This document shows positions 137 through 8,990 of a stretch of DNA of 22,461 nucleotides, piece by piece. The notes under the pieces are model-generated. The model had not been told where the DNA came from. It made no database searches and saw only the letters and a program-made list of their open reading frames with translations. A program made the position numbers and the translations under genes. The stretch's first letter is position 1; each line of letters begins with the position of its first letter. Source of the stretch: a virus. Its lineage: Duplodnaviria; Heunggongvirae; Uroviricota; Caudoviricetes. The DNA is taken from the IMG/VR virus record IMGVR_UViG_2657245448_000004. The stretch is one strand, 5' to 3'.

Positions 137-685
137 TTAAATTAGTGCTTCAGCATCAGCACCTTCGCTGATATCGTCGAAATCGTCAGCGCTTGCCACT
201 CCGCCGCCAGCGAATGCATCGCCGTCTCGCAGGAACTGGACTCCGCCGAGTGAGGCATTAATGCGTTTACCGAAATTATTGTCCTGTGCCCAGATATCGA
301 TAACGGCGTTTACATAGCACCCTGCATAAGGACGTCCGTCAGCCTGAATAAGTGGCGAACGATCGCGATCAAGAACAGCTGGGCGCGCTTTGTTAGCAGC
401 ATTCAGGAAGAAATTGCCGGGGAAGCCTTCATACTCTGCTTTTTCATCACCATCATGCAGGCACAGATTGAGTTTTTTCTCCAGCTGGTTATAAATGGGC
501 TCCCACTTCTCTCCCCATTTTTCCTTCGCTACCTGCTTCATAGCTTTACGGATTTCTTCCAGTTGTGGGTGTTTGGGAGACATTAAAAATACTGCGGAGA
601 AACGCGGATCGCCTTCGCCGTTTACAGTTTTAGCTTCAAACAGAGACGGGAAGGCCAGACGAACATTGTTCAGCTTCAGTTTCAT
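137..685 (-). CDS. phage SSB-like protein (DUF2815-like, recalled from memory)
   Basis: 182-aa ORF ending 16 nt after the nuclease gene on the same strand. N-terminus MKLKLNNVRLAFPSLFEA and acidic C-terminal tail resemble the phage SSB-like family that pairs with DUF2800 nucleases. Confidence 0.6.
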   Translation of the reverse strand: MKLKLNNVRLAFPSLFEAKTVNGEGDPRFSAVFLMSPKHPQLEEIRKAMKQVAKEKWGEKWEPIYNQLEKKLNLCLHDGDEKAEYEGFPGNFFLNAANKARPAVLDRDRSPLIQADGRPYAGCYVNAVIDIWAQDNNFGKRINASLGGVQFLRDGDAFAGGGVASADDFDDISEGADAEALI

Positions 686-700
686 GGGTATTTCCTTAAA

Positions 701-2002
701 TCAGATGAGGTCTGCGGTTAGCGTATCGTCGGATACGTCGTCGAAATCATTTACAGGGTTGATATTGAGTGCGGGGCGTGGGTCTGACTCGGGAACGACG
801 GTTGGTTTACCATCAGCTCGTGTTATCAGTGCCTCGACTTTTGACCAACGGCGTGGACTGGCCTTTTTGATAAGTTTTTCGGCTTTTGTGGGACTAATAA
901 GTTTAAAGTCGAATACTTCTTCAGTTTTGTACCTGAACTGGTCCTTCAGAAGTGCGCGAGCTGCCTCTTCATCACTCCAGGCCCGGTTACCTTGTTTTCC
1001 TGTTACCAGTTTAAACCCCGGTACCGGATGTCCGGCATTGAGTTCATTGTGAACCCGGTCCCGTACTGCCTTTAGCCAGGACTCAATAAAGTCGGCCTGG
1101 CTATAGATCTCCGCAAGCTGCTCAATGGTTAACAGAGGTACACGTGCGCTGGCATTGGTGATTATTTCGCTGACAGGCTTTGTCAGATCTTCAAAGTCGC
1201 TGGCCGCTGTTTGTAAATGCTGCATTTTCTGGGCAGTGCAAATAGCTTTTGCTTTACAGAAGCGGCACTGCTTTTCTCCAGGTATGAAGTTTTCCAGCGG
1301 TAGTGTCTCAATGCCTTCGCATTCAGCAATATTGAGAACAAGGATCGCACTGGTTGCGGCCTCCTGTGCTCGTTTACCGAAAGACTGAAGTTCCTGCACG
1401 GTTAACGACCATTCTGAAACGTGGTTGAGCCTTGGCTGGTGAATAAATAATCTTACAGTCTCAAAGTCATACAGCATGCTGAATTGTTCGAGAGCACCCA
1501 GAGCATACAGTTGTAGTTGCTCATTTTGTTCTGCATCAATGCGGACGCCTTTGCCATATTTCAGGTCGTGGATTTGTAATTCGCTACCAGCGATGATTAT
1601 GCCGTCGGCAGTTCCGAAAGATTCTTCCACACCCGTTATATGTGAGAAATCAACACGTTGTTCAACCAATAGTTCATTATTCTGTGCAAGAGTCCAGACC
1701 GTATCAACATACCGGCCAACGGCTTCGACCATTTCATCATCCACCTGTGGGCCAGATGTATCATCAGGATTTTCGCGAAGGGGGTATGAGCCGAGAAACA
1801 TAGAAACATTGCATCCGGCGTAGTGTTCCGGGTGGCTTTGCCTGTTTCGTAGAACTTTTTCAGCAAGCGCGTGCGCTGCAGTGCCCTCGATTGCAAAAGT
1901 TGTTTCTTTATCCGGTTGTGTGGCCTCCAGCGCCAGACTTCCTGGGCAGCGCATCCATCGATGCGCTGATGATGGAGAAAGTTGTGCATGAACGTCTGGC
2001 AT
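701..2002 (-). CDS. PD-(D/E)XK-type nuclease with Cas4-like cysteine cluster (DUF2800-like)
   Basis: 433-aa ORF. N-terminal Cys (RWMRCPGS) plus C-terminal C-x2-C-x5-C ([10 protein letters not shown]) fit a Cas4/AddB-style 4Fe-4S cluster; IHDLKYGKG and QLY resemble RecB-family nuclease motifs. Start is 3 nt from the upstream gene end. Confidence 0.65.
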
Positions 2003-2004
2003 GA

Positions 2005-2907
2005 TTAACCCTCCAGTGCTTTTTCAGCCAGGGTGATTACTTCAGCGAGATTTTCATCCGTTACTTCACCAAGTTTCCTGGCTCCCTGTTTTTCCAGAAT
2101 TGCAATAGCTTCTGCCCGGTAACCCCCTTTTGCTAACTGGAGGATCAACCCTTCAGCTTGTTTGCGTAGTGCCGCGAAATCAATTGTATGGTCATCTTTG
2201 GCGTCATTATTCTGGCTGGAATTTGCTGTGTCTCTGCGTGCAAATTCTTCCTGCAGCTGAAGGTACTCAACACGGTTGGTCTCGATATGGCCTTTTTTCA
2301 GCATCTCGTTCAACTTGCGTAAGGTGTGGAGTTCACTGGCTGCTGTGCCGGATACATTTTTGACGTAAAACGGCCCCGTGCGTTCTCCATCTTTGTTACT
2401 GGCCTTTTTCGGCTTAACTTCATCACGCCCATCCGCAGGTGCATCAAGTAGCTGCTCGGCAAAAGCACGTCGCTCGCCGATGGTTGGCAGGTCGTCCCAG
2501 AACTTAAGGATGTTACGGGACAGGTCCAGGAGAGCAGGTTTAAGCAGCGCCCTGGCTCGTTTGACGCCCTGCAATGCGCTGTCGAGAGCATCAATCTGAA
2601 CTACTCGTTTATCGCCTTCAGCATCACGGTAGGCAACAGCACGTTGCAGCATGTCTTCTGTGATAGGGGTGGCTACTGGGTAGAAACCAGCCAGTGCGAT
2701 AACGTCGCTGAACTCCAGATCATCCAGTGTCATTGCCGCTGACATATTTTCAGTTTCAGTTGCTGTATCCCGACATTCCTGCACTCGTGAAATCGTGTCA
2801 GGATGCATAACAATACCTGATGCCATTGTGCGGATAAGACGTTCAAGCAGCGCATTATGTTGTGCCAGAAGTTGATTATTAAGTTCGAGACTGGTTTCTA
2901 AACTCAT
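2005..2907 (-). CDS. hypothetical early-left operon protein (function not recognised)
   Basis: 300-aa ORF tightly packed between the small membrane ORF (ATGA overlap) and the nuclease gene. Charged, helical-looking composition; no motif I can name. Confidence 0.55.
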
Positions 2908-3074
2908 ACTGTGGTCCTCGCTACAAGGAGAATGAAAGTGATGATCAGACCGAGCGCAGTGGCAACGGCCAGACCGGTCATCAAATCGAAGTTTTTACGG
3001 CGATAACGGAGAACATCGCGCCCCGTCAGTCGATAGAGGTGTTCAGGTTTCATCGGTTGTATTCCTTTTTTCAT
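2904..3074 (-). CDS. small membrane protein (56 aa), first gene of the early-left operon
   Basis: Not in the ORF track (under 60 aa). Hand translation of the minus strand: [56 protein letters not shown], with one hydrophobic C-terminal helix. Its TGA stop overlaps the ATG of the 2005..2907 gene, suggesting translational coupling. Confidence 0.45.
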   Translation of the reverse strand: MKKGIQPMKPEHLYRLTGRDVLRYRRKNFDLMTGLAVATALGLIITFILLVARTTV

Positions 3075-3110: not shown

Positions 3111-3138
3111 ATAAAAAAGCCCGTCATTTGCGGCGGGC
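3111..3138 (-). terminator. putative intrinsic terminator (minus strand) upstream of the early-left operon
   Basis: Hairpin GCCCG...CGGGC at 3119..3138, followed on the minus strand by a 6-nt U-run (plus-strand A-run 3113..3118). Confidence 0.4.
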
Positions 3139-3277
3139 AAAGACTACACACAGCAATTACATGGATATCATCGAGTGCCTGCTTTTAACCACATCAGGCG
3201 AGGTGGTTCTCCTTGTACCCCTACAGTGAGAAATCGTCTAATATCTCTTCACCCCTACAGTTTGAGAGAGATTAGAT

Positions 3278-3847
3278 ATGTCTGAAGAAAAAGGAATTCT
3301 TTCCCGGATAACTGAATCGTTATCCGGCGTGGGAGGAGCAATTAAAGGCGCGGTTGGAGCAGCAAGAGAGATTCAGAATCTGACTGTCGACTATGCAGTT
3401 AAAGAGAAGACGCACACCTTACTCGATAAGCTAATGGATGTTCAGATGCAGCAAATGTCGCTTCAGGAGCTGCTGATTGCGGCTAAGGAGAAAATTGTTG
3501 AACTGGAAAATGAGAAAGTAAAGCAAGAGAACTGGGCCGCTGAAGCGGCGAGCTATGAACTTTACCAGCCTATGCGGGGTACTCTGGTCTATCGCAGCAA
3601 GCTTTCTGCAGATACTGACCAATCTCCGGTTTATATTTGTCCCAATTGCTACGAGCAAAAGAGAAAATCTATATTGCAAGCGGAAGGTCTGGTTATTAAG
3701 CCAGGCCTTGGGCGAGCCGTTAATATGGTTTGTTCGCACTGTAGGGCTTCCTATCTGTTCAACCGAAATGCTTTAGAGGCCAGACTGCCTGCTGAAGATG
3801 AAAATCCGGGGAAGGCAATCACGGATTACGATCCTTACAACCAGTAA
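3278..3847 (+). CDS. hypothetical protein: Gly-rich N-terminus, coiled-coil, C-terminal zinc-ribbon-like CxxC...CxxC; candidate accessory/defence gene
   Basis: 189-aa ORF with a GA-rich SD-like stretch (GAGAGAGA) just upstream of the ATG. Heptad-like charged segment around residues 40-90; CPNC at residues 121-124 and CSHC at 152-155. Opposite strand to both neighbours and convergent with the repressor gene. Confidence 0.75.
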   Translation: MSEEKGILSRITESLSGVGGAIKGAVGAAREIQNLTVDYAVKEKTHTLLDKLMDVQMQQMSLQELLIAAKEKIVELENEKVKQENWAAEAASYELYQPMRGTLVYRSKLSADTDQSPVYICPNCYEQKRKSILQAEGLVIKPGLGRAVNMVCSHCRASYLFNRNALEARLPAEDENPGKAITDYDPYNQ

Positions 3848-3896
3848 TTTCTTTAAGCATGGGTACCCTTCCGGCCACCCAGAGTTAAAGGAACTA

Positions 3897-3925
3897 AGCG
3901 CCCCATCGTCGGGGCGTTTCAACTT
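3897..3925 (+). terminator. putative intrinsic terminator for the 3278..3847 gene
   Basis: 6 to 8-bp GC-rich stem (cgcccc / ggggcg, loop atcgtc) followed by TTTC, about 50 nt after the stop codon. Confidence 0.4.
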
Positions 3926-4154
3926 GCGTGACTTATCAGTTCGTCGCGGTGTTGTCCTCTACGCTTACCGTACGCATACGGACTCGGCGCTTACCTCGAT
4001 CCCATCGGGTGCCATTTCATTTTGCCAGGAGTACTGCGGCTTACCTGTCACGCGGTTCAGTTTGTTAAAGAGCTGGTATTAAAAAACGCATTAATTATGC
4101 GGTATCGTATTTATATGCGTTATGGGATTTTGCGTCAATACGAAAATGAATTAT

Positions 4155-4192
4155 TTTGCAAATAAGAAAACCGCCCTTGTGGAGAGCGGTTT
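4155..4192 (-). terminator. putative intrinsic terminator downstream of the repressor gene
   Basis: Stem aaaccgc / gcggttt (4168..4174 with 4186..4192), 11-nt loop, followed on the minus strand by a T-rich tract (TTTCTTATTT); about 30 nt past the repressor stop. Confidence 0.45.
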
Positions 4193-4222
4193 GATCAGAA
4201 GTAAGTTATCAGACTGTAAAGG

Positions 4223-4897
4223 TTAGTACATGCGTAGCGCGGATTTGGCGATCCCCGCCACGTAATGGATTTTTTCAATGTTTTCGCGTGGTACTCTGAC
4301 TGGTGGATGATCTTCATTTACAGACATTAGATGGAACAGGCCATCGCGTTCGAACAAGAAGGTTTTAACCATGACCTCACCGTCCCGGGTAACCACAAGT
4401 ACTTCATCACCAGGAGTGTAGTCGTGGTTGGGTTCGACGATTACGAACTCACCCTCTTTGATTCTAGGCATCATTGAATCACCAACACATTTCAGGGCGT
4501 ATGCATCTTCATCCTTTGTCGGCCAGTATATGAAACCATCACTGCTACCTACTGAATATTGGGTGTCGCTCCAAAGTCCTCCAACGCCTAGCTGAGTGTT
4601 TCCCAAAACAGGTACTTTATTAAACCTAAGAGAAATATACGTTTTTATACCCGTCGCGTCCTCTTTCTCCATTTCTTGAAGGCTCCTTTCTGCCAGGTCT
4701 ATTGGTGACACGTGGAAGTAGTCGGCGATCTGCTTTAACGTTGCGTATTTCGGATCTTTCACCTCTCCTGATACCAGCCTGTGTAGCGTTGGTTGGTTCA
4801 GTTGTAACCGACGTGCCAGCTCAGTTATCGAGCTTATCTTGGCTTTGTCCATCAGGTACTTGATGTTTTGAGAAAGGATATCGGTAGTATCAATCAT
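4223..4897 (-). CDS. CI-like repressor (N-terminal HTH, C-terminal S24/LexA-type peptidase domain)
   Basis: 224-aa ORF. N-terminal HTH-like segment (SSITELARRLQLNQPTLHRLVSG) and C-terminal autocleavage-type domain with Ser/Lys motifs (CVGDSMMP ... EVMVKTF). Divergent from a Cro-like gene. Confidence 0.9.
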   Translation of the reverse strand: MIDTTDILSQNIKYLMDKAKISSITELARRLQLNQPTLHRLVSGEVKDPKYATLKQIADYFHVSPIDLAERSLQEMEKEDATGIKTYISLRFNKVPVLGNTQLGVGGLWSDTQYSVGSSDGFIYWPTKDEDAYALKCVGDSMMPRIKEGEFVIVEPNHDYTPGDEVLVVTRDGEVMVKTFLFERDGLFHLMSVNEDHPPVRVPRENIEKIHYVAGIAKSALRMY

Positions 4898-5038
4898 TTG
4901 GATTCATCCATGTTGTATACAGGGACGGTGATTATGCGTTATCGGATATTTTAATCCAGGATGATATAGAATTGCCGTATTGCTGAATAATCCGTTTTCG
5001 TATAAATTTGCGCTATAGACGAAAGTGGAGACTTAAAT
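4898..5038. promoter_or_regulatory. immunity switch region with divergent promoters and operator-like repeats
   Basis: 141-bp AT-rich gap between the divergent repressor and Cro-like genes. Similar motifs TATAGAATTGCCGTAT (about 4964..4980) and TATAAATTTGCGCTAT (about 5001..5017); SD GGAG at 5027..5030 ahead of the Cro ATG. Exact -35/-10 elements not resolved. Confidence 0.5.
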
Positions 5039-5239
5039 ATGTCCGGACTAACACCACAAGAGATGGTCAAAAGCTTGATTGATTCAGGGTATACCCAAAA
5101 CCAAATTGCCGAAATTGCAGGCGTGAAGCAGTCTTCTATTAGTCGGCTTCTCACCGGGGTTCATTCTGACCCTCGCTTTTCTACAGTACGTGCGATAGAA
5201 AAGCTTTTTCAGGAAGTGACAGCTAGACAAAAGGCGTAA
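5039..5239 (+). CDS. Cro-like HTH regulator
   Basis: 66-aa ORF with an HTH-like segment (YTQNQIAEIAGVKQSSISRLLTG), divergent from the repressor and heading the rightward operon. Confidence 0.8.
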   Translation: MSGLTPQEMVKSLIDSGYTQNQIAEIAGVKQSSISRLLTGVHSDPRFSTVRAIEKLFQEVTARQKA

Positions 5240-5242
5240 CCC

Positions 5243-7504
5243 ATGTCTGATAACAAACCATGGGGAGCTACGCCCGATGAGTGGTTCCACTTCGATCTGG
5301 TGTTGGGGATGACAGACAGGCTTTTACCTGTGGTGTCCAATCCCTGTGCAGAACTGTCGCCTAATAGCAAGCTGTCTCATAATTTCGGCAAAACCCCCAG
5401 TCGCTACAATGGCCAACGTAAGGTTGTTGGTATCCCCGACTGGGCTAACTATGTTGTTACGGAAAACGATTTTGCCCGGTGGTCGAACGAACCCGATTAC
5501 GGTATTTGCGTTCGTACTGGCGACGGGGTGGTGGCTCTGGACTGCGATATCAATGACGCCGGGATGCAGGAGATCGTACGCAATATTATCCTGTCATGCC
5601 TGGGGGAACTTCCGCCACGTCGCTGGCGGGCTGACAGTCATAAATGCCTGTACCTGATTGCTGTTGATGGCGACTACCGTAAACGTGGTCACCGCCTGGA
5701 AGGCGAAAACAAACAAATAGAGCTGCTCGCTAAGGGCCAGCAGTTTGTGGCTTGTGGTACCCATCCGGCAGGCGAACGTATTCAGTGGGACTGCGGTCTG
5801 CCCGGCGAACCTCTGAAAATTACATCTGAACAGCTCGAAAGCCTGTGGCAGCGTCTGGCGGATAACTTACCCGTGAAAGACAGCTATACCGCAGGTGCAG
5901 GACGTCAGCGTGATCTTTCCTGTGTTGATCCTTCCGCGACAGATGATGTCGCCGACTGGCTTGACGCGAACGGGTGGACTCTGTCAGTCAGCTCTGATGG
6001 TTCCCGCAATCTGAAACCGTTTCGGGATGAGTCAGAATACAGCAACGGTTGCAGCGAAACATCCATTAAGTATTTCCCAAAAGGGACGGGGGGATTTGAA
6101 CAGGGACATTTTAAAAGCATGCACAACACCGATGCGGGGCTTACTGATGCCGACTGGCTGGAAGGCTACGGCTATACGCAATCCCTGTTCGAAGATCTCA
6201 CGGTGGTTGAAGATGGCGATAAGCCTGAATTTACCGATATTAATACAGATATGACAGCTCATTTTCTGGAACGCTTTATCTACGTCATCGAGGGTGACCA
6301 GGTATGTGATCTTAGCCGACCGCCATATCAGTGCATGATGGATATGAAGTCGTTCAAAAACCTGATGGCGCCTTACCAGTTCCCGCCAGAAGGGAAAGGG
6401 CAACCAACTCCCGCAACCAAACGGTGGATAGAGCATCGGCATAAGAAGATTGCTGAGACGACAGGCTATAAGCCCGGTGCGGGACGTATTATCGAGCGTT
6501 TCGACGGGCGGTTTGAGATAAACGAATTTTATATGCCTGAGCATCCACGTACAGCGGATACAAGTAAGGTGTCCACGTTCCTTAATCATATGGCGTATCT
6601 GGTACCTGATGCCTGGCAGCGCGAGTTTTTCATCGCCCGTCTGGGGTGGATGGTTCAGCGTCCGGAGCGTCGATGCCCGATTTCTATTCTGCATGTGGCT
6701 TCCGCACATGGTACGGGCAGAGGATGGGTCAGCCAGTTAATGGAGCGCGTGCTTGGTCCGTGGAACTGTGCTCGTACTCGCATGAAGATCCTGTGCGATA
6801 ACCAGTTCCATGACTATCTGTACAATACGCTTCTATGCACCATTGACGAGGTGCGCGAAAATGATAAGCGGTATGAGGTGAACGATAAGATCCGTGACGT
6901 GCTGACAGAACCACGGTTTGAAGTGAACCGCAAATATGGCAGCAAAAAAACGATGGATATATACACCGGCTTTCTGTTCTACACCAACCACTTTGATGCG
7001 CTGGCGCTGCCAGAGGAAGACCGACGTATCGCTGTGCTGGGGGGCCCTGACTTCGCCGCAACTGAAGAGCATTACGCCAGCCTGTACGGTGCGCTAAGCG
7101 ACAGCGACTTTATCGCCCAGGTGTACTGGTATCTGATGGGCGTTGACCTGTCTCGCTTTAACTGGCAGCGCGCCCCCGAGACGAAAGAACGCCTTCTGAT
7201 GATTGAAAGCAATAAGAGCGATGTGGAGGCTGCTCTTATTGAAATCCTGGATAATCCGCCTGTGCCAGCAATGACTTATCAACAAATTGTTAACGCAATA
7301 CTGGCAGAAGCAGGAATGGATGTAGAAATTAACCAGAAGCATATTACTCGCATTTTGAAAGAAAGAACAAAGCGGGAACCCGTACGCGTAAAAATTGACG
7401 GGTTTGTATATAGGATTTGGATTCTTGTAAAAAATAACGATTTCAGCAACGAAGAATTGCGCGAAATATATAAATCTTGCGAAATTTTGCAATCTGGATT
7501 GTAA
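5243..7504 (+). CDS. replication primase-polymerase (AEP-type N-terminus) fused to a helicase/NTPase-like C-terminal domain
   Basis: 753-aa ORF starting 3 nt after the Cro stop. N-terminal AEP-like motifs: hhhDhD (VVALDCDIND) and sGxxH (ACGTHPAG). C-terminal P-loop-like segment SAHGTGRGW about 40 aa before a Walker-B-like LLCTIDEV. Confidence 0.8.
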   Translation: MSDNKPWGATPDEWFHFDLVLGMTDRLLPVVSNPCAELSPNSKLSHNFGKTPSRYNGQRKVVGIPDWANYVVTENDFARWSNEPDYGICVRTGDGVVALDCDINDAGMQEIVRNIILSCLGELPPRRWRADSHKCLYLIAVDGDYRKRGHRLEGENKQIELLAKGQQFVACGTHPAGERIQWDCGLPGEPLKITSEQLESLWQRLADNLPVKDSYTAGAGRQRDLSCVDPSATDDVADWLDANGWTLSVSSDGSRNLKPFRDESEYSNGCSETSIKYFPKGTGGFEQGHFKSMHNTDAGLTDADWLEGYGYTQSLFEDLTVVEDGDKPEFTDINTDMTAHFLERFIYVIEGDQVCDLSRPPYQCMMDMKSFKNLMAPYQFPPEGKGQPTPATKRWIEHRHKKIAETTGYKPGAGRIIERFDGRFEINEFYMPEHPRTADTSKVSTFLNHMAYLVPDAWQREFFIARLGWMVQRPERRCPISILHVASAHGTGRGWVSQLMERVLGPWNCARTRMKILCDNQFHDYLYNTLLCTIDEVRENDKRYEVNDKIRDVLTEPRFEVNRKYGSKKTMDIYTGFLFYTNHFDALALPEEDRRIAVLGGPDFAATEEHYASLYGALSDSDFIAQVYWYLMGVDLSRFNWQRAPETKERLLMIESNKSDVEAALIEILDNPPVPAMTYQQIVNAILAEAGMDVEINQKHITRILKERTKREPVRVKIDGFVYRIWILVKNNDFSNEELREIYKSCEILQSGL

Positions 7505-8135: not shown

Positions 8136-8558
8136 ATGCGTGATATTCGACTGGTTTTAGAGCGATGGGGGGGCTGGGCTGCGAGCGAAGGTTGCAGTGT
8201 CTACTATCCACCTGTTTCCGCTGGATTTAAGAATCTGCTACCTGCAACGCAAGCCGGGCGGCTGAAGTGCAGTGACAATGACGGTCTGATCATCAGCTCT
8301 GCTATGAACTGCCTGAAGAAAAAAGATCCGTACCTGTGTACGCTCCTTGAGTGGCATTACATCCAGGCGATGCCTGTGAGGGCTATGGGTGTGAAGCTCG
8401 GCGTATCACACACTCAAGTTCTGAAGAGGCTCCAGGCTGCAGAGGGATTTATCGACGGCTGCCTGGCTATGCTGGACGTGGTTCTGGAAATGGATCAAGC
8501 AGTTCAGTCAAAGCCTAAGGCTATCAGGACTTTGCGAAGGAGCTGCCCGGCGGCATAA
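8136..8558 (+). CDS. Q: late-gene antiterminator, Q-like
   Basis: 140-aa ORF. N-terminus MRDIRLVLERWGGWAASEG and the QKAEGFIDGCLAMLDVVLEMD segment match my recollection of the prophage Q antiterminator family. It lies directly upstream of the lysis cassette with an intervening regulatory region. Confidence 0.75.
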   Translation: MRDIRLVLERWGGWAASEGCSVYYPPVSAGFKNLLPATQAGRLKCSDNDGLIISSAMNCLKKKDPYLCTLLEWHYIQAMPVRAMGVKLGVSHTQVLKRLQAAEGFIDGCLAMLDVVLEMDQAVQSKPKAIRTLRRSCPAA

Positions 8559-8739: not shown

Positions 8740-8966
8740 GCCCCATTCTGGGGAAAAGTTAATAAAACAGGGCTTTCGCTGCGAAAAAACGCTATGCAGT
8801 TTTTGCCCTTTTTTATGCACCTTTTATTCACTCGAATTTCGTCATTCTGGACCACTTAAGTTGATTAAATAGGCCTTTCATCGCAAATCTATTGCGAGCG
8901 GGGATCGTGTGGTTCCTATAACGTACATTATGTTAAATAACTTCCTTTTTTAACAAATTTAACAAG

Positions 8967-8990
8967 GTTCGCTATGGCGAACTTTTTTTG
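8967..8990 (+). terminator. second intrinsic terminator in the Q-holin intergenic region
   Basis: Perfect 6-bp stem GTTCGC / GCGAAC with loop tatg, followed by TTTTTTTGTATT. Confidence 0.55.

Follow-up and report, generated by a model that had tools for sequence, protein, structure and literature searches.

Why does an Escherichia coli prophage keep a long, apparently empty gap next to its repressor gene? The gap in question, 375 bp in length (positions 3848-4222), lies in a 22,461-nucleotide stretch of DNA from a Caudoviricetes virus (IMG/VR record IMGVR_UViG_2657245448_000004), hereafter the window, and is bounded by the end of a plus-strand gene at 3847 and the end of a minus-strand repressor open reading frame (ORF) at 4223. 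The window is an E. coli prophage; its gap is 100% identical in four induced phages (vB_EcoM-606R2 and its relatives) and, among the matches listed, in 21 complete E. coli genomes. The NCBI Prokaryotic Genome Annotation Pipeline (PGAP) has zero annotation in the gap of the identical E. coli prophages, and a tRNA/tmRNA gene search found none. We found the gap to be a three-part mosaic of a repressor terminator, a promoter resembling the leftward operator and promoter of lambdoid phages (OL/PL) and a 177-nt conserved RNA module, all read on the minus strand. We estimate at roughly 60% the probability that this module is the equivalent of nutL or putL and serves the early-left replication operon as a leader for processive antitermination and resistance to Rho; the same estimate applies to the reading of the whole gap as the prophage's left control region, corresponding to OL/PL with nutL.

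Comparison of the gap with 5426 complete E. coli genomes by blastn produced alignments that break at fixed points, covering query positions 1-226 only, 40/52-375 only or 50/52-224/226 only. These fixed breakpoints point to a discrete unit, approximately 3897-4073, that recurs with other left neighbours, other right neighbours or both. In loci L004 and L005, for example, the unit stands beside a different repressor allele, and in L004 the left gene is different as well; in a phi80-like lambdoid prophage (L003) the unit is present at 85.7% identity. Across its recurrences it measures 175-177 nt. The right part of the gap (4074-4222) moves with the repressor allele and the left 50 bp with the gene for a 189-aa protein, homology to loci with another left neighbour starting only at 3887-3899. 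The functional strand of the region is the minus strand, opposite to this accessory gene, and on that strand the unit has the following parts:

3897-4073, minus strand: conserved RNA module (boxA, branched domain and 3' hairpin) with sharp homology boundaries
4062-4073, minus strand: boxA GCUCUUUAACAA, 12/12 identical to the E. coli rrn boxA-spacer ugcucuuuaacaauuua
3926-4053, minus strand: branched domain of ~128 nt, closed by the long-range stem P1
4053-4047 with 3932-3926, minus strand: helix P1
4041-4033 with 3950-3938, minus strand: helix P2
4030-4027 with 3958-3955, minus strand: helix P3
4010-3993, minus strand: hairpin P4
3990-3961, minus strand: hairpin P5
4011-4029, minus strand: most conserved strand, CCUGGCAAAAYGAAAURGC, with CCU in P3 and the remainder predicted to be unpaired
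3899-3916, minus strand: 3' hairpin CGCCCC-GAYGAU-GGGGCG, without a U-run on this strand

The boxA forms the 5' edge of conservation, which is abrupt. It has the form (C/U)GCUCUUUAACAA and agrees with the rrn-type consensus UGCUCUUUAACAA, except that the first base is C or U instead of U; the reference boxA-spacer sequence is that of Table 1 in PMC2724277. In the window GCUCUUUAACAA is the single perfect boxA copy, readable on the minus strand only and starting 36 nt past the predicted -10 element of the promoter described below. It is nearly invariant in 42 sequences representing four sequence classes. The spacing of the module is boxA, 8 nt, closed domain, 9 nt, hairpin. Together with the strand at 4011-4029 and GAGG of P3, boxA makes up the sequence core common to all classes, the invariant positions being boxA, CCUGGC..AA..GAAAU.GC and GAGG. 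The 3' hairpin differs in sequence between classes and is not followed by a U-run in any context.

The fold of the module was worked out manually, with compensatory changes as the guide. Folded as a single sequence, the minus strand was no more stable than shuffled sequences (z = +0.63), and RNAalifold gave inconsistent folds on MAFFT alignments; the structure therefore rests on covariation and not on energy. Covariation across homologous prophages, proposed as a check by an earlier, preliminary description of the locus, turned out to be present: the four sequence classes have one fold in common, 97.4% of cells pair in the 42 distinct sequences, and compensatory double changes occur in 29 of the 41 pairs compared with 14.5 +/- 2.4 in shuffles, of which 0/500 reach 29. 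Structures slid by 1-3 columns retain 2-7 such pairs and 26-40% pairing. By helix, the covarying pairs amount to 7/7 in P4, 6/7 in P1 and 5/6 in the 3' hairpin. Within class 1 alone (53 sequences) 98.9% of cells pair and 6 pairs show double changes. The sense of the RNA is indicated by 65 helix cells with G.U pairs on the minus strand versus 23 cells favouring the plus strand. We considered and discarded a pseudoknot between AAY (4021-4019) and RUU (3925-3923), which by eye is lost in L101, L102 and classes 3 and 4; its Y:R pair covaries within class 1 (CG 35, AU 9, UA 5).

The covariance model R1 scores the window module at 220 bits, and in each of the module-bearing loci searched it recovers one copy and no more. 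Classes 2-4 were found by pattern scans, with the 4011-4029 strand as the anchor that retrieved classes 3 and 4:

Class 2 (L099, L101-L103): P4 and P5 swapped for other sequence, architecture kept
Class 3 (Yersinia phages YeP4-6 and relatives): R1 scores of 23-32 bits
Class 4 (L107-L109 and L111, further lambdoid-type prophages): R1 scores of 79-89 bits

Upstream of the module, between boxA and the repressor gene, the gap contains the signals expected to govern its transcription:

4158-4192, minus strand: intrinsic terminator of the repressor gene (stem 4192-4168 with 10 pairs, 5 of them G-C, and tail TCTTATTTGC, a T-run)
4110-4138, minus strand: PL-like sigma-70 promoter (-35 TTGACG at 4138-4133, 17-nt spacer, -10 TATAAA at 4115-4110)
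4096-4161: operator-like (OL-like) repeats, TATGCGNTATNGNAT at 4096-4110 and 4114-4128
4087-4101, minus strand: palindrome CGCAT-N5-ATGCG followed by T6 (5-bp stem, -4.8 kcal/mol), called terminator-like by the scan

The promoter hexamers match the consensus at 10 of 12 positions, with a predicted start near 4103; close allelic copies (TTGACA-17-TATAAA) reach 11/12. A simple promoter scan passed over this promoter because it demands T at position 6 of the -10 element. The arrangement is not peculiar to the window, for wherever the module recurs it closely follows a PL-like promoter. Across ~100 related loci, at least 10 unrelated flank types have a comparable promoter 16-65 nt before boxA, and at least 10 immunity types agree in the succession of repressor gene, terminator, a TTGAC(A/G/T)-N17/18 promoter amid its own inverted repeats, and boxA. 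Other repressor alleles likewise have their own terminator at the equivalent place. The window contains exactly 3 copies of the 15-mer TATGCGNTATNGNAT (at 4096, 4114 and 4933) versus 0.10 expected, and 0/100 shuffles reach 3; its third copy lies between the repressor and cro-like genes. In addition, the stretch 4138-4161 returns in inverted orientation at 4980-5003, within the cI-cro region, the two 24-nt arms being 83% complementary. Such mirrored sites beside two divergent early promoters look like repressor operators. The palindrome at 4087-4101 is present only in the flanks of this immunity type, outside the conserved module; situated after the predicted start and ahead of boxA, it overlaps one of the operator-like repeats. 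As its PL-like promoter is predicted to be repressor-controlled, expression of the module RNA is to be expected upon induction and not in lysogens, and small-RNA sequencing of the latter would probably miss it.

The position behind PL is seen once more in an uncultured lambdoid prophage, L030, whose operators and PL (3845-3960) closely resemble those of HK022 (L093 4300-4400, minus strand). The L030 OL/PL is homologous to that of HK022 up to the transcription start; then follow a short leader and the module, where HK022 has putL.

These results recast what the preliminary description had seen in the gap. Its three hairpins are all where it had placed them, and the gap indeed holds more than two convergent terminators, having a promoter, operator-like sites and an RNA module besides. 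As terminators, however, the hairpins fare unequally: the one at 4168-4192 is clear, whereas that at 4087-4101 is a palindrome and that at 3897-3916 the 3' hairpin of the module. Likewise, a structured RNA and operator-like sites are both present, in keeping with the suggestion of a small RNA or protein-binding sites, but the suggested tie to the adjacent gene at 3278-3847 does not hold, since only 22 of 104 loci have a homologue of this gene beside the module, in each case convergent to it, and left neighbours vary. Three copies of GCTTACC, in RNA GGUAAGC, were found as described (3963, 3989 and 4039, within 83 nt; the window has 6 on both strands versus 1.94 expected), but in class 1 they form parts of helices and junctions rather than a conserved motif, and other classes preserve the fold with two of the three copies gone. 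Finally, the 94-aa ORF at 3798-4082 had rightly been taken for non-coding. For this ORF and a 46-aa one (3928-4068), both on the plus strand, variable columns fall at codon positions 1/2/3 as 24/22/30, with no third-position excess, and class 2 is distinguished by two separate 1-nt deletions; this codon-position pattern, together with starts and stops in non-homologous flanks, ruled them out as coding.

What would the leader serve? Leftward of the module lies the early-left operon, preceded by a possible barrier:

3113-3140, minus strand: terminator-like hairpin GCCCG-N10-CGGGC followed by U6, directly upstream of the operon
Start at 3074 or 3053, minus strand: 49/56-aa ORF, first of the operon
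2005-2907, minus strand: 300-aa ORF
701-2002, minus strand: DUF2800 gene
137-685, minus strand: DUF2815 gene

The fold of the hairpin is modest (centroid -8.2 kcal/mol), and its 10-nt loop is the reason why a simple scan did not flag it. It is conserved in the commonest module context, L017 (3513-3538, z = -2.46), and is a candidate target of antitermination. In L017 the module is followed by a long hairpin (z = -4.2), a 64-aa ORF, the GCCCG-N10-CGGGC hairpin with U6, and then the 49-aa, ~300-aa, DUF2800, DUF2815 and polymerase genes. In the window the convergent 189-aa gene takes the place of the 64-aa ORF, so that a leftward transcript has to run through ~750 nt that are antisense and untranslated before it meets the hairpin with U6; on the minus strand between the module and this hairpin no promoter-like site was seen. 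Over the 104 loci the 189-aa gene neighbours the module in 22 and the 64-aa ORF in 18. No partner protein is common to the contexts: clustering of ORFs within 4.5 kb of the module in the 104 loci left the repressor as the sole shared family. An N-like family was not found among ten proteins scanned from the window and two related loci with NCBIfam and PHROGs, a very divergent N being possible, and PGAP annotates no N in the identical prophage.

Position, orientation, boxA, the lack of a detectable N, the gated operon and the swap for putL together suggest that the module is a functional counterpart of nutL and putL. In the mechanism we propose, inactivation of the repressor would let RNA polymerase start at the PL-like promoter (~4103) and transcribe leftward on the minus strand, producing as its first conserved product a 177-nt leader made of the rrn-type boxA, the ~128-nt four-helix domain and the hairpin. 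The folded domain would then stay on the elongation complex through the invariant strand CCUGGCAAAAYGAAAURGC, replacing the N-boxB of lambda or the put RNA of HK022. A-rich single strands beside boxA are the place where NusA binds in nut and rrn leaders, and the invariant strand is a candidate contact for NusA or polymerase. The modified polymerase would resist Rho across ~1 kb of untranslated RNA, antisense in the window, and would pass the hairpin at 3140-3113 into the 49/56-aa ORF, the 300-aa ORF, DUF2800, DUF2815 and DNA polymerase genes. By analogy with known boxA leaders, protection of untranslated RNA from Rho would be the most secure part of this proposal; that the folded domain extends the protection to intrinsic terminators, in place of N-boxB, is hypothesised.

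Several observations weigh against this proposal. The promoter and terminator calls are matches to consensus, with TATAAA as the -10 element, and covariation was counted on an alignment fitted to the model, a procedure biased towards the structure. Some lambdoid class 1 copies have a deviant boxA, GCUUCUUUAACAA or UGCUUUUUAACAA, with one extra or changed U. The 3113-3140 hairpin is weak, having 5 G-C pairs and a 10-nt loop. Natural deletions exist as well: L096 (6471-6621) and L098 (1320-1470) lack ~26 nt of P5, and L100 (4965-5091) has lost everything from P2 through the 5' half of P4. These variants may represent defective prophages, or parts of the fold may be dispensable. Differently from lambda and HK022, the window has no second, nutR-like copy in the rightward operon. 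Finally, antitermination systems with an rrn-type boxA counter Rho-dependent terminators, not intrinsic ones; read-through of the hairpin with U6 therefore hinges on the putative activity of the folded domain.

We weighed four other explanations, given here in order of decreasing probability. It is unlikely that boxA acts by itself as an anti-Rho shield while the folded domain is a 5' stabiliser, a site for RNase III or RNase E or a regulator of first-gene translation. Protection of untranslated RNA by boxA alone is established, as it shields CRISPR transcripts from Rho (PMC7665894), several contexts have long extra hairpins after the module (z = -4.2 in L017 and -2.05 in the window), and the downstream genes vary between contexts. 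Yet the domain and boxA are conserved as a unit in four classes, with fixed spacing and an invariant unpaired strand, whereas the first genes downstream and the extra hairpins are not conserved; moreover, a stabiliser or processing site needs no covarying four-helix architecture of ~128 nt.

Improbable, too, is a true N-type nut site, with the 3' hairpin as boxB, the large domain as an inserted spacer and an unrecognised N-like protein as the ligand. P1 would bring boxA and the 3' hairpin near each other, and nut spacers with dyad symmetry were reportedly described in phage H-19B by Neely and Friedman in 2000. There is also a precedent in mEp021-group phages, in which the N-like protein Gp17 goes with boxA/boxB sites (PMC11893012). 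However, neither an N-like nor an arginine-rich protein was found among the proteins scanned, the repressor is the only protein cluster shared by the contexts within 4.5 kb, and the ORF at the position of N varies, being the 64-aa one in 18 loci, the convergent 189-aa one in 22 and others elsewhere. In addition, the sequence and loop of the hairpin vary between classes, whereas boxB loops are protein-specific.

Still less probable is a trans-acting small RNA or RNA decoy, made from PL on induction or infection and directed against targets in the host or in competitor phages. The module is a discrete, mobile and structured unit of a size typical of small RNAs; in its commonest context a hairpin, GGCUUCGGGCC, with UUUU follows ~20 nt after it and could end a ~220-nt RNA; and prophage-encoded regulatory RNAs were reportedly found in pathogenic E. 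coli by Tree et al. in 2014. But no terminator is conserved as part of the module, a U-run being absent from its 3' hairpin everywhere, and its position is always inside the early-left operon's 5' leader, read in the direction of that operon. A perfect boxA makes little sense in a trans-acting RNA, and a single-stranded seed with target-like variation is missing. The idea that the gap holds convergent terminators and a small RNA or binding sites tied to the 3278-3847 gene retains very little probability: the terminator at 4168-4192 is genuine and the 3' hairpin on the plus strand (GCGCCCC-N6-GGGGCGUUU) could help terminate that gene, but 82 of the 104 module loci are without it, which largely refutes the idea, the homology boundaries of the module leave out its 3' flank, and the functional strand is opposite. 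As for that hairpin, with arms at 3896-3904 and 3911-3919 (9 nt, 89% complementary) and just UUU after 3897-3916 on the plus strand, it might also act as a weak terminator of the gene.

Around these elements the window contains the following:

3845-3896: flank hairpin outside the module that travels with the 189-aa gene (-19.6 kcal/mol, z = -2.05)
3278-3847, plus strand: 189-aa gene, phrog_1244, function unknown
4223-4897, minus strand: S24/LexA-type (cI-like) repressor
5039-5239, plus strand: cro-like gene
5243-7504: primase/helicase
8136-8558: Q-like antiterminator

Upstream of the 189-aa gene (start 3278), a direct repeat, ACCCCTACAGT, occurs at 3206-3216 and 3251-3261, 45 bp apart, and could be a regulator-binding site for this accessory gene. 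In both the window (3278-3847) and L003 (3165-3617), two unrelated contexts, a convergent gene of unknown function with CxxC pairs lies directly downstream of the module. The L003 gene belongs to the ECs_2282 family (zinc protein) and the window gene to phrog_1244, and no relationship between their products is detectable. The spot after the module may be an insertion hotspot for accessory genes ('morons'), in which case PL transcription would run antisense to the insert. On the plus strand, a strong terminator-like hairpin with a T-run lies at 8964-8985, ~400 bp past the Q-like gene and ahead of the lysis genes; this is the expected place of the terminator that Q would overcome at the late promoter.

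How widespread is the module? Class 1 is present in 104 of the 5426 complete E. coli genomes (about 2%), in a single copy except for one genome with two, and its carriers include O103, O121 and O45 Shiga-toxin-producing strains and uropathogenic lineages. Further copies come from about 100 IMG/VR contigs and from metagenomes of the human gut and other sources; the only class 1 carriers among 50,697 deposited phage genomes are the four vB_EcoM phages. A scan of GTDB species representatives with a boxA and P1 pattern yielded one false positive only (L105), indicating that these reference genomes are without the element and that it is confined to a subset of strains; the metagenome scan yielded mostly class 1, plus one false positive (L121). 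The prophages that host the module are both non-lambdoid and phi80/HK022-like lambdoid. At gathering thresholds, no Rfam family matches anywhere in the window, and at E <= 10 the region 3800-4260 gives two chance-level hits (15.9 and 13.7 bits versus a threshold of 60). No description of the module was found in the searchable literature. An anti-small RNA of the AgvB type, mimicking GcvB, was considered on account of an ACAACAC stretch and rejected, the stretch being a part of P2 that varies between copies.

Two further phages have a related layout with other RNA. In Serratia phage vB_SspM_BZS1 (MT843275.1; L115 2440-2700) the CI terminator, a TTGACG promoter and a class 4 leader precede a perfect boxA, GCTCTTTAACAA (2538-2549), which is followed by an unrelated ~105-nt domain closed by GUCACCCAG/CUGGGUGAC, a 9-bp long-range stem. 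In the phi80 prophage of E. coli DH5alpha (NZ_CP045741.1; L116 2975-3420) an L003-type PL leader and the boxA-like UGCUUUUUAACAA are followed by ~330 nt of unannotated DNA before the first gene of the left operon; this DNA is rich in G+C and bears no homology to the module, and no N gene is annotated in the L116 stretch. These two cases suggest a broader architecture of PL, boxA and a closed RNA domain, in which the stem-closed domains may be interchangeable.

Should a linked RNA do the work of N here, as in the hybrid signal suggested further below, this could explain how early genes are switched on in many N-less temperate phages of Enterobacterales, among them non-lambdoid DUF2800/DNA-polymerase phages, phi80/HK022-like lambdoids and Yersinia phages. 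The element is a testable candidate for the means by which N-less lambdoid phages, and temperate phages unrelated to lambda, pass early terminators, and its perfect boxA predicts dependence on Nus factors. If it works as proposed, it would also constitute a new RNA family for Rfam, a compact, portable anti-termination and anti-Rho part, and a new way for RNA and host Nus factors to reprogram RNA polymerase. For annotation, a 'long empty gap' by a prophage repressor would be read as a control region on the strand opposite the accessory gene.

Compared with lambda nutL, the module resembles it in being the first element of the transcript after a repressor-controlled leftward promoter, in having boxA and a later hairpin and in preceding terminators that gate the early-left genes. 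It differs in that its boxA has the full rrn consensus (CUUUA) whereas that of lambda is CGCUCUUA, and in the distance from boxA to the hairpin, which in the module is taken up by ~128 nt of folded RNA and in lambda is ~8 nt. Furthermore, it has no conserved pentaloop boxB, the nearest hairpin outside the domain being 145 nt away with a 6-nt loop (GAYGAU), and no N gene was detected with it. The nut/Gp17 system of mEp021-group phages was rejected as a relative; it belongs to another phage group, with no DNA similarity.

With HK022 putL the module shares the character of a cis-acting folded RNA directly behind PL in phages without N, and in L030 it occupies the very place of putL in a prophage with HK022-like OL/PL. 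Unlike put, with ~70 nt and two stems, it has ~177 nt and a multi-branch fold, and it carries boxA, which put does not. Put acts on RNA polymerase through the beta' zinc-binding domain. It needs no dedicated trans-acting protein factor (PMC9378689). Judging from sequence, boxA argues for involvement of Nus factors in the module, which would be a difference from put. The two are not homologous: the comparison, which covers HK022 put only, found the sequences unrelated, the HK022 PL-putL stretch has no blastn or R1 match on its own strand, and a 17-bit R1 match (L093 2433-2520), on the opposite strand and far from PL, was taken as chance.

The rrn leader (boxB-boxA-boxC) has the identical boxA-spacer start, GCUCUUUAACAA, and, like the boxA leaders of CRISPR arrays, stands at the head of a long untranslated transcript otherwise exposed to Rho. 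Its antitermination signal forms the rrnTAC complex with Nus factors, SuhB and S4. In the window, the hairpin before boxA (4101-4087) is allele-specific and overlaps an operator-like repeat, and a GU-rich boxC was not seen. In rrn, boxB and boxC are not required, and Rho-dependent terminators are suppressed by boxA together with its flanking sequence (PMC2724277); rrn is also a case in which boxA alone protects untranslated RNA from Rho (Berg et al., cited in that paper). Unlike rrn and CRISPR leaders, the module is phage-borne and repressor-controlled, has a family-specific folded domain without counterpart there, and may have to defeat an intrinsic terminator. We suggest, tentatively and at somewhat less than even odds, that the module represents a third kind of early antitermination signal in phages, a hybrid that combines nut/rrn with put: boxA would load host NusB-S10, and a covalently linked ~128-nt RNA, in place of N, would complete a complex resistant to termination.

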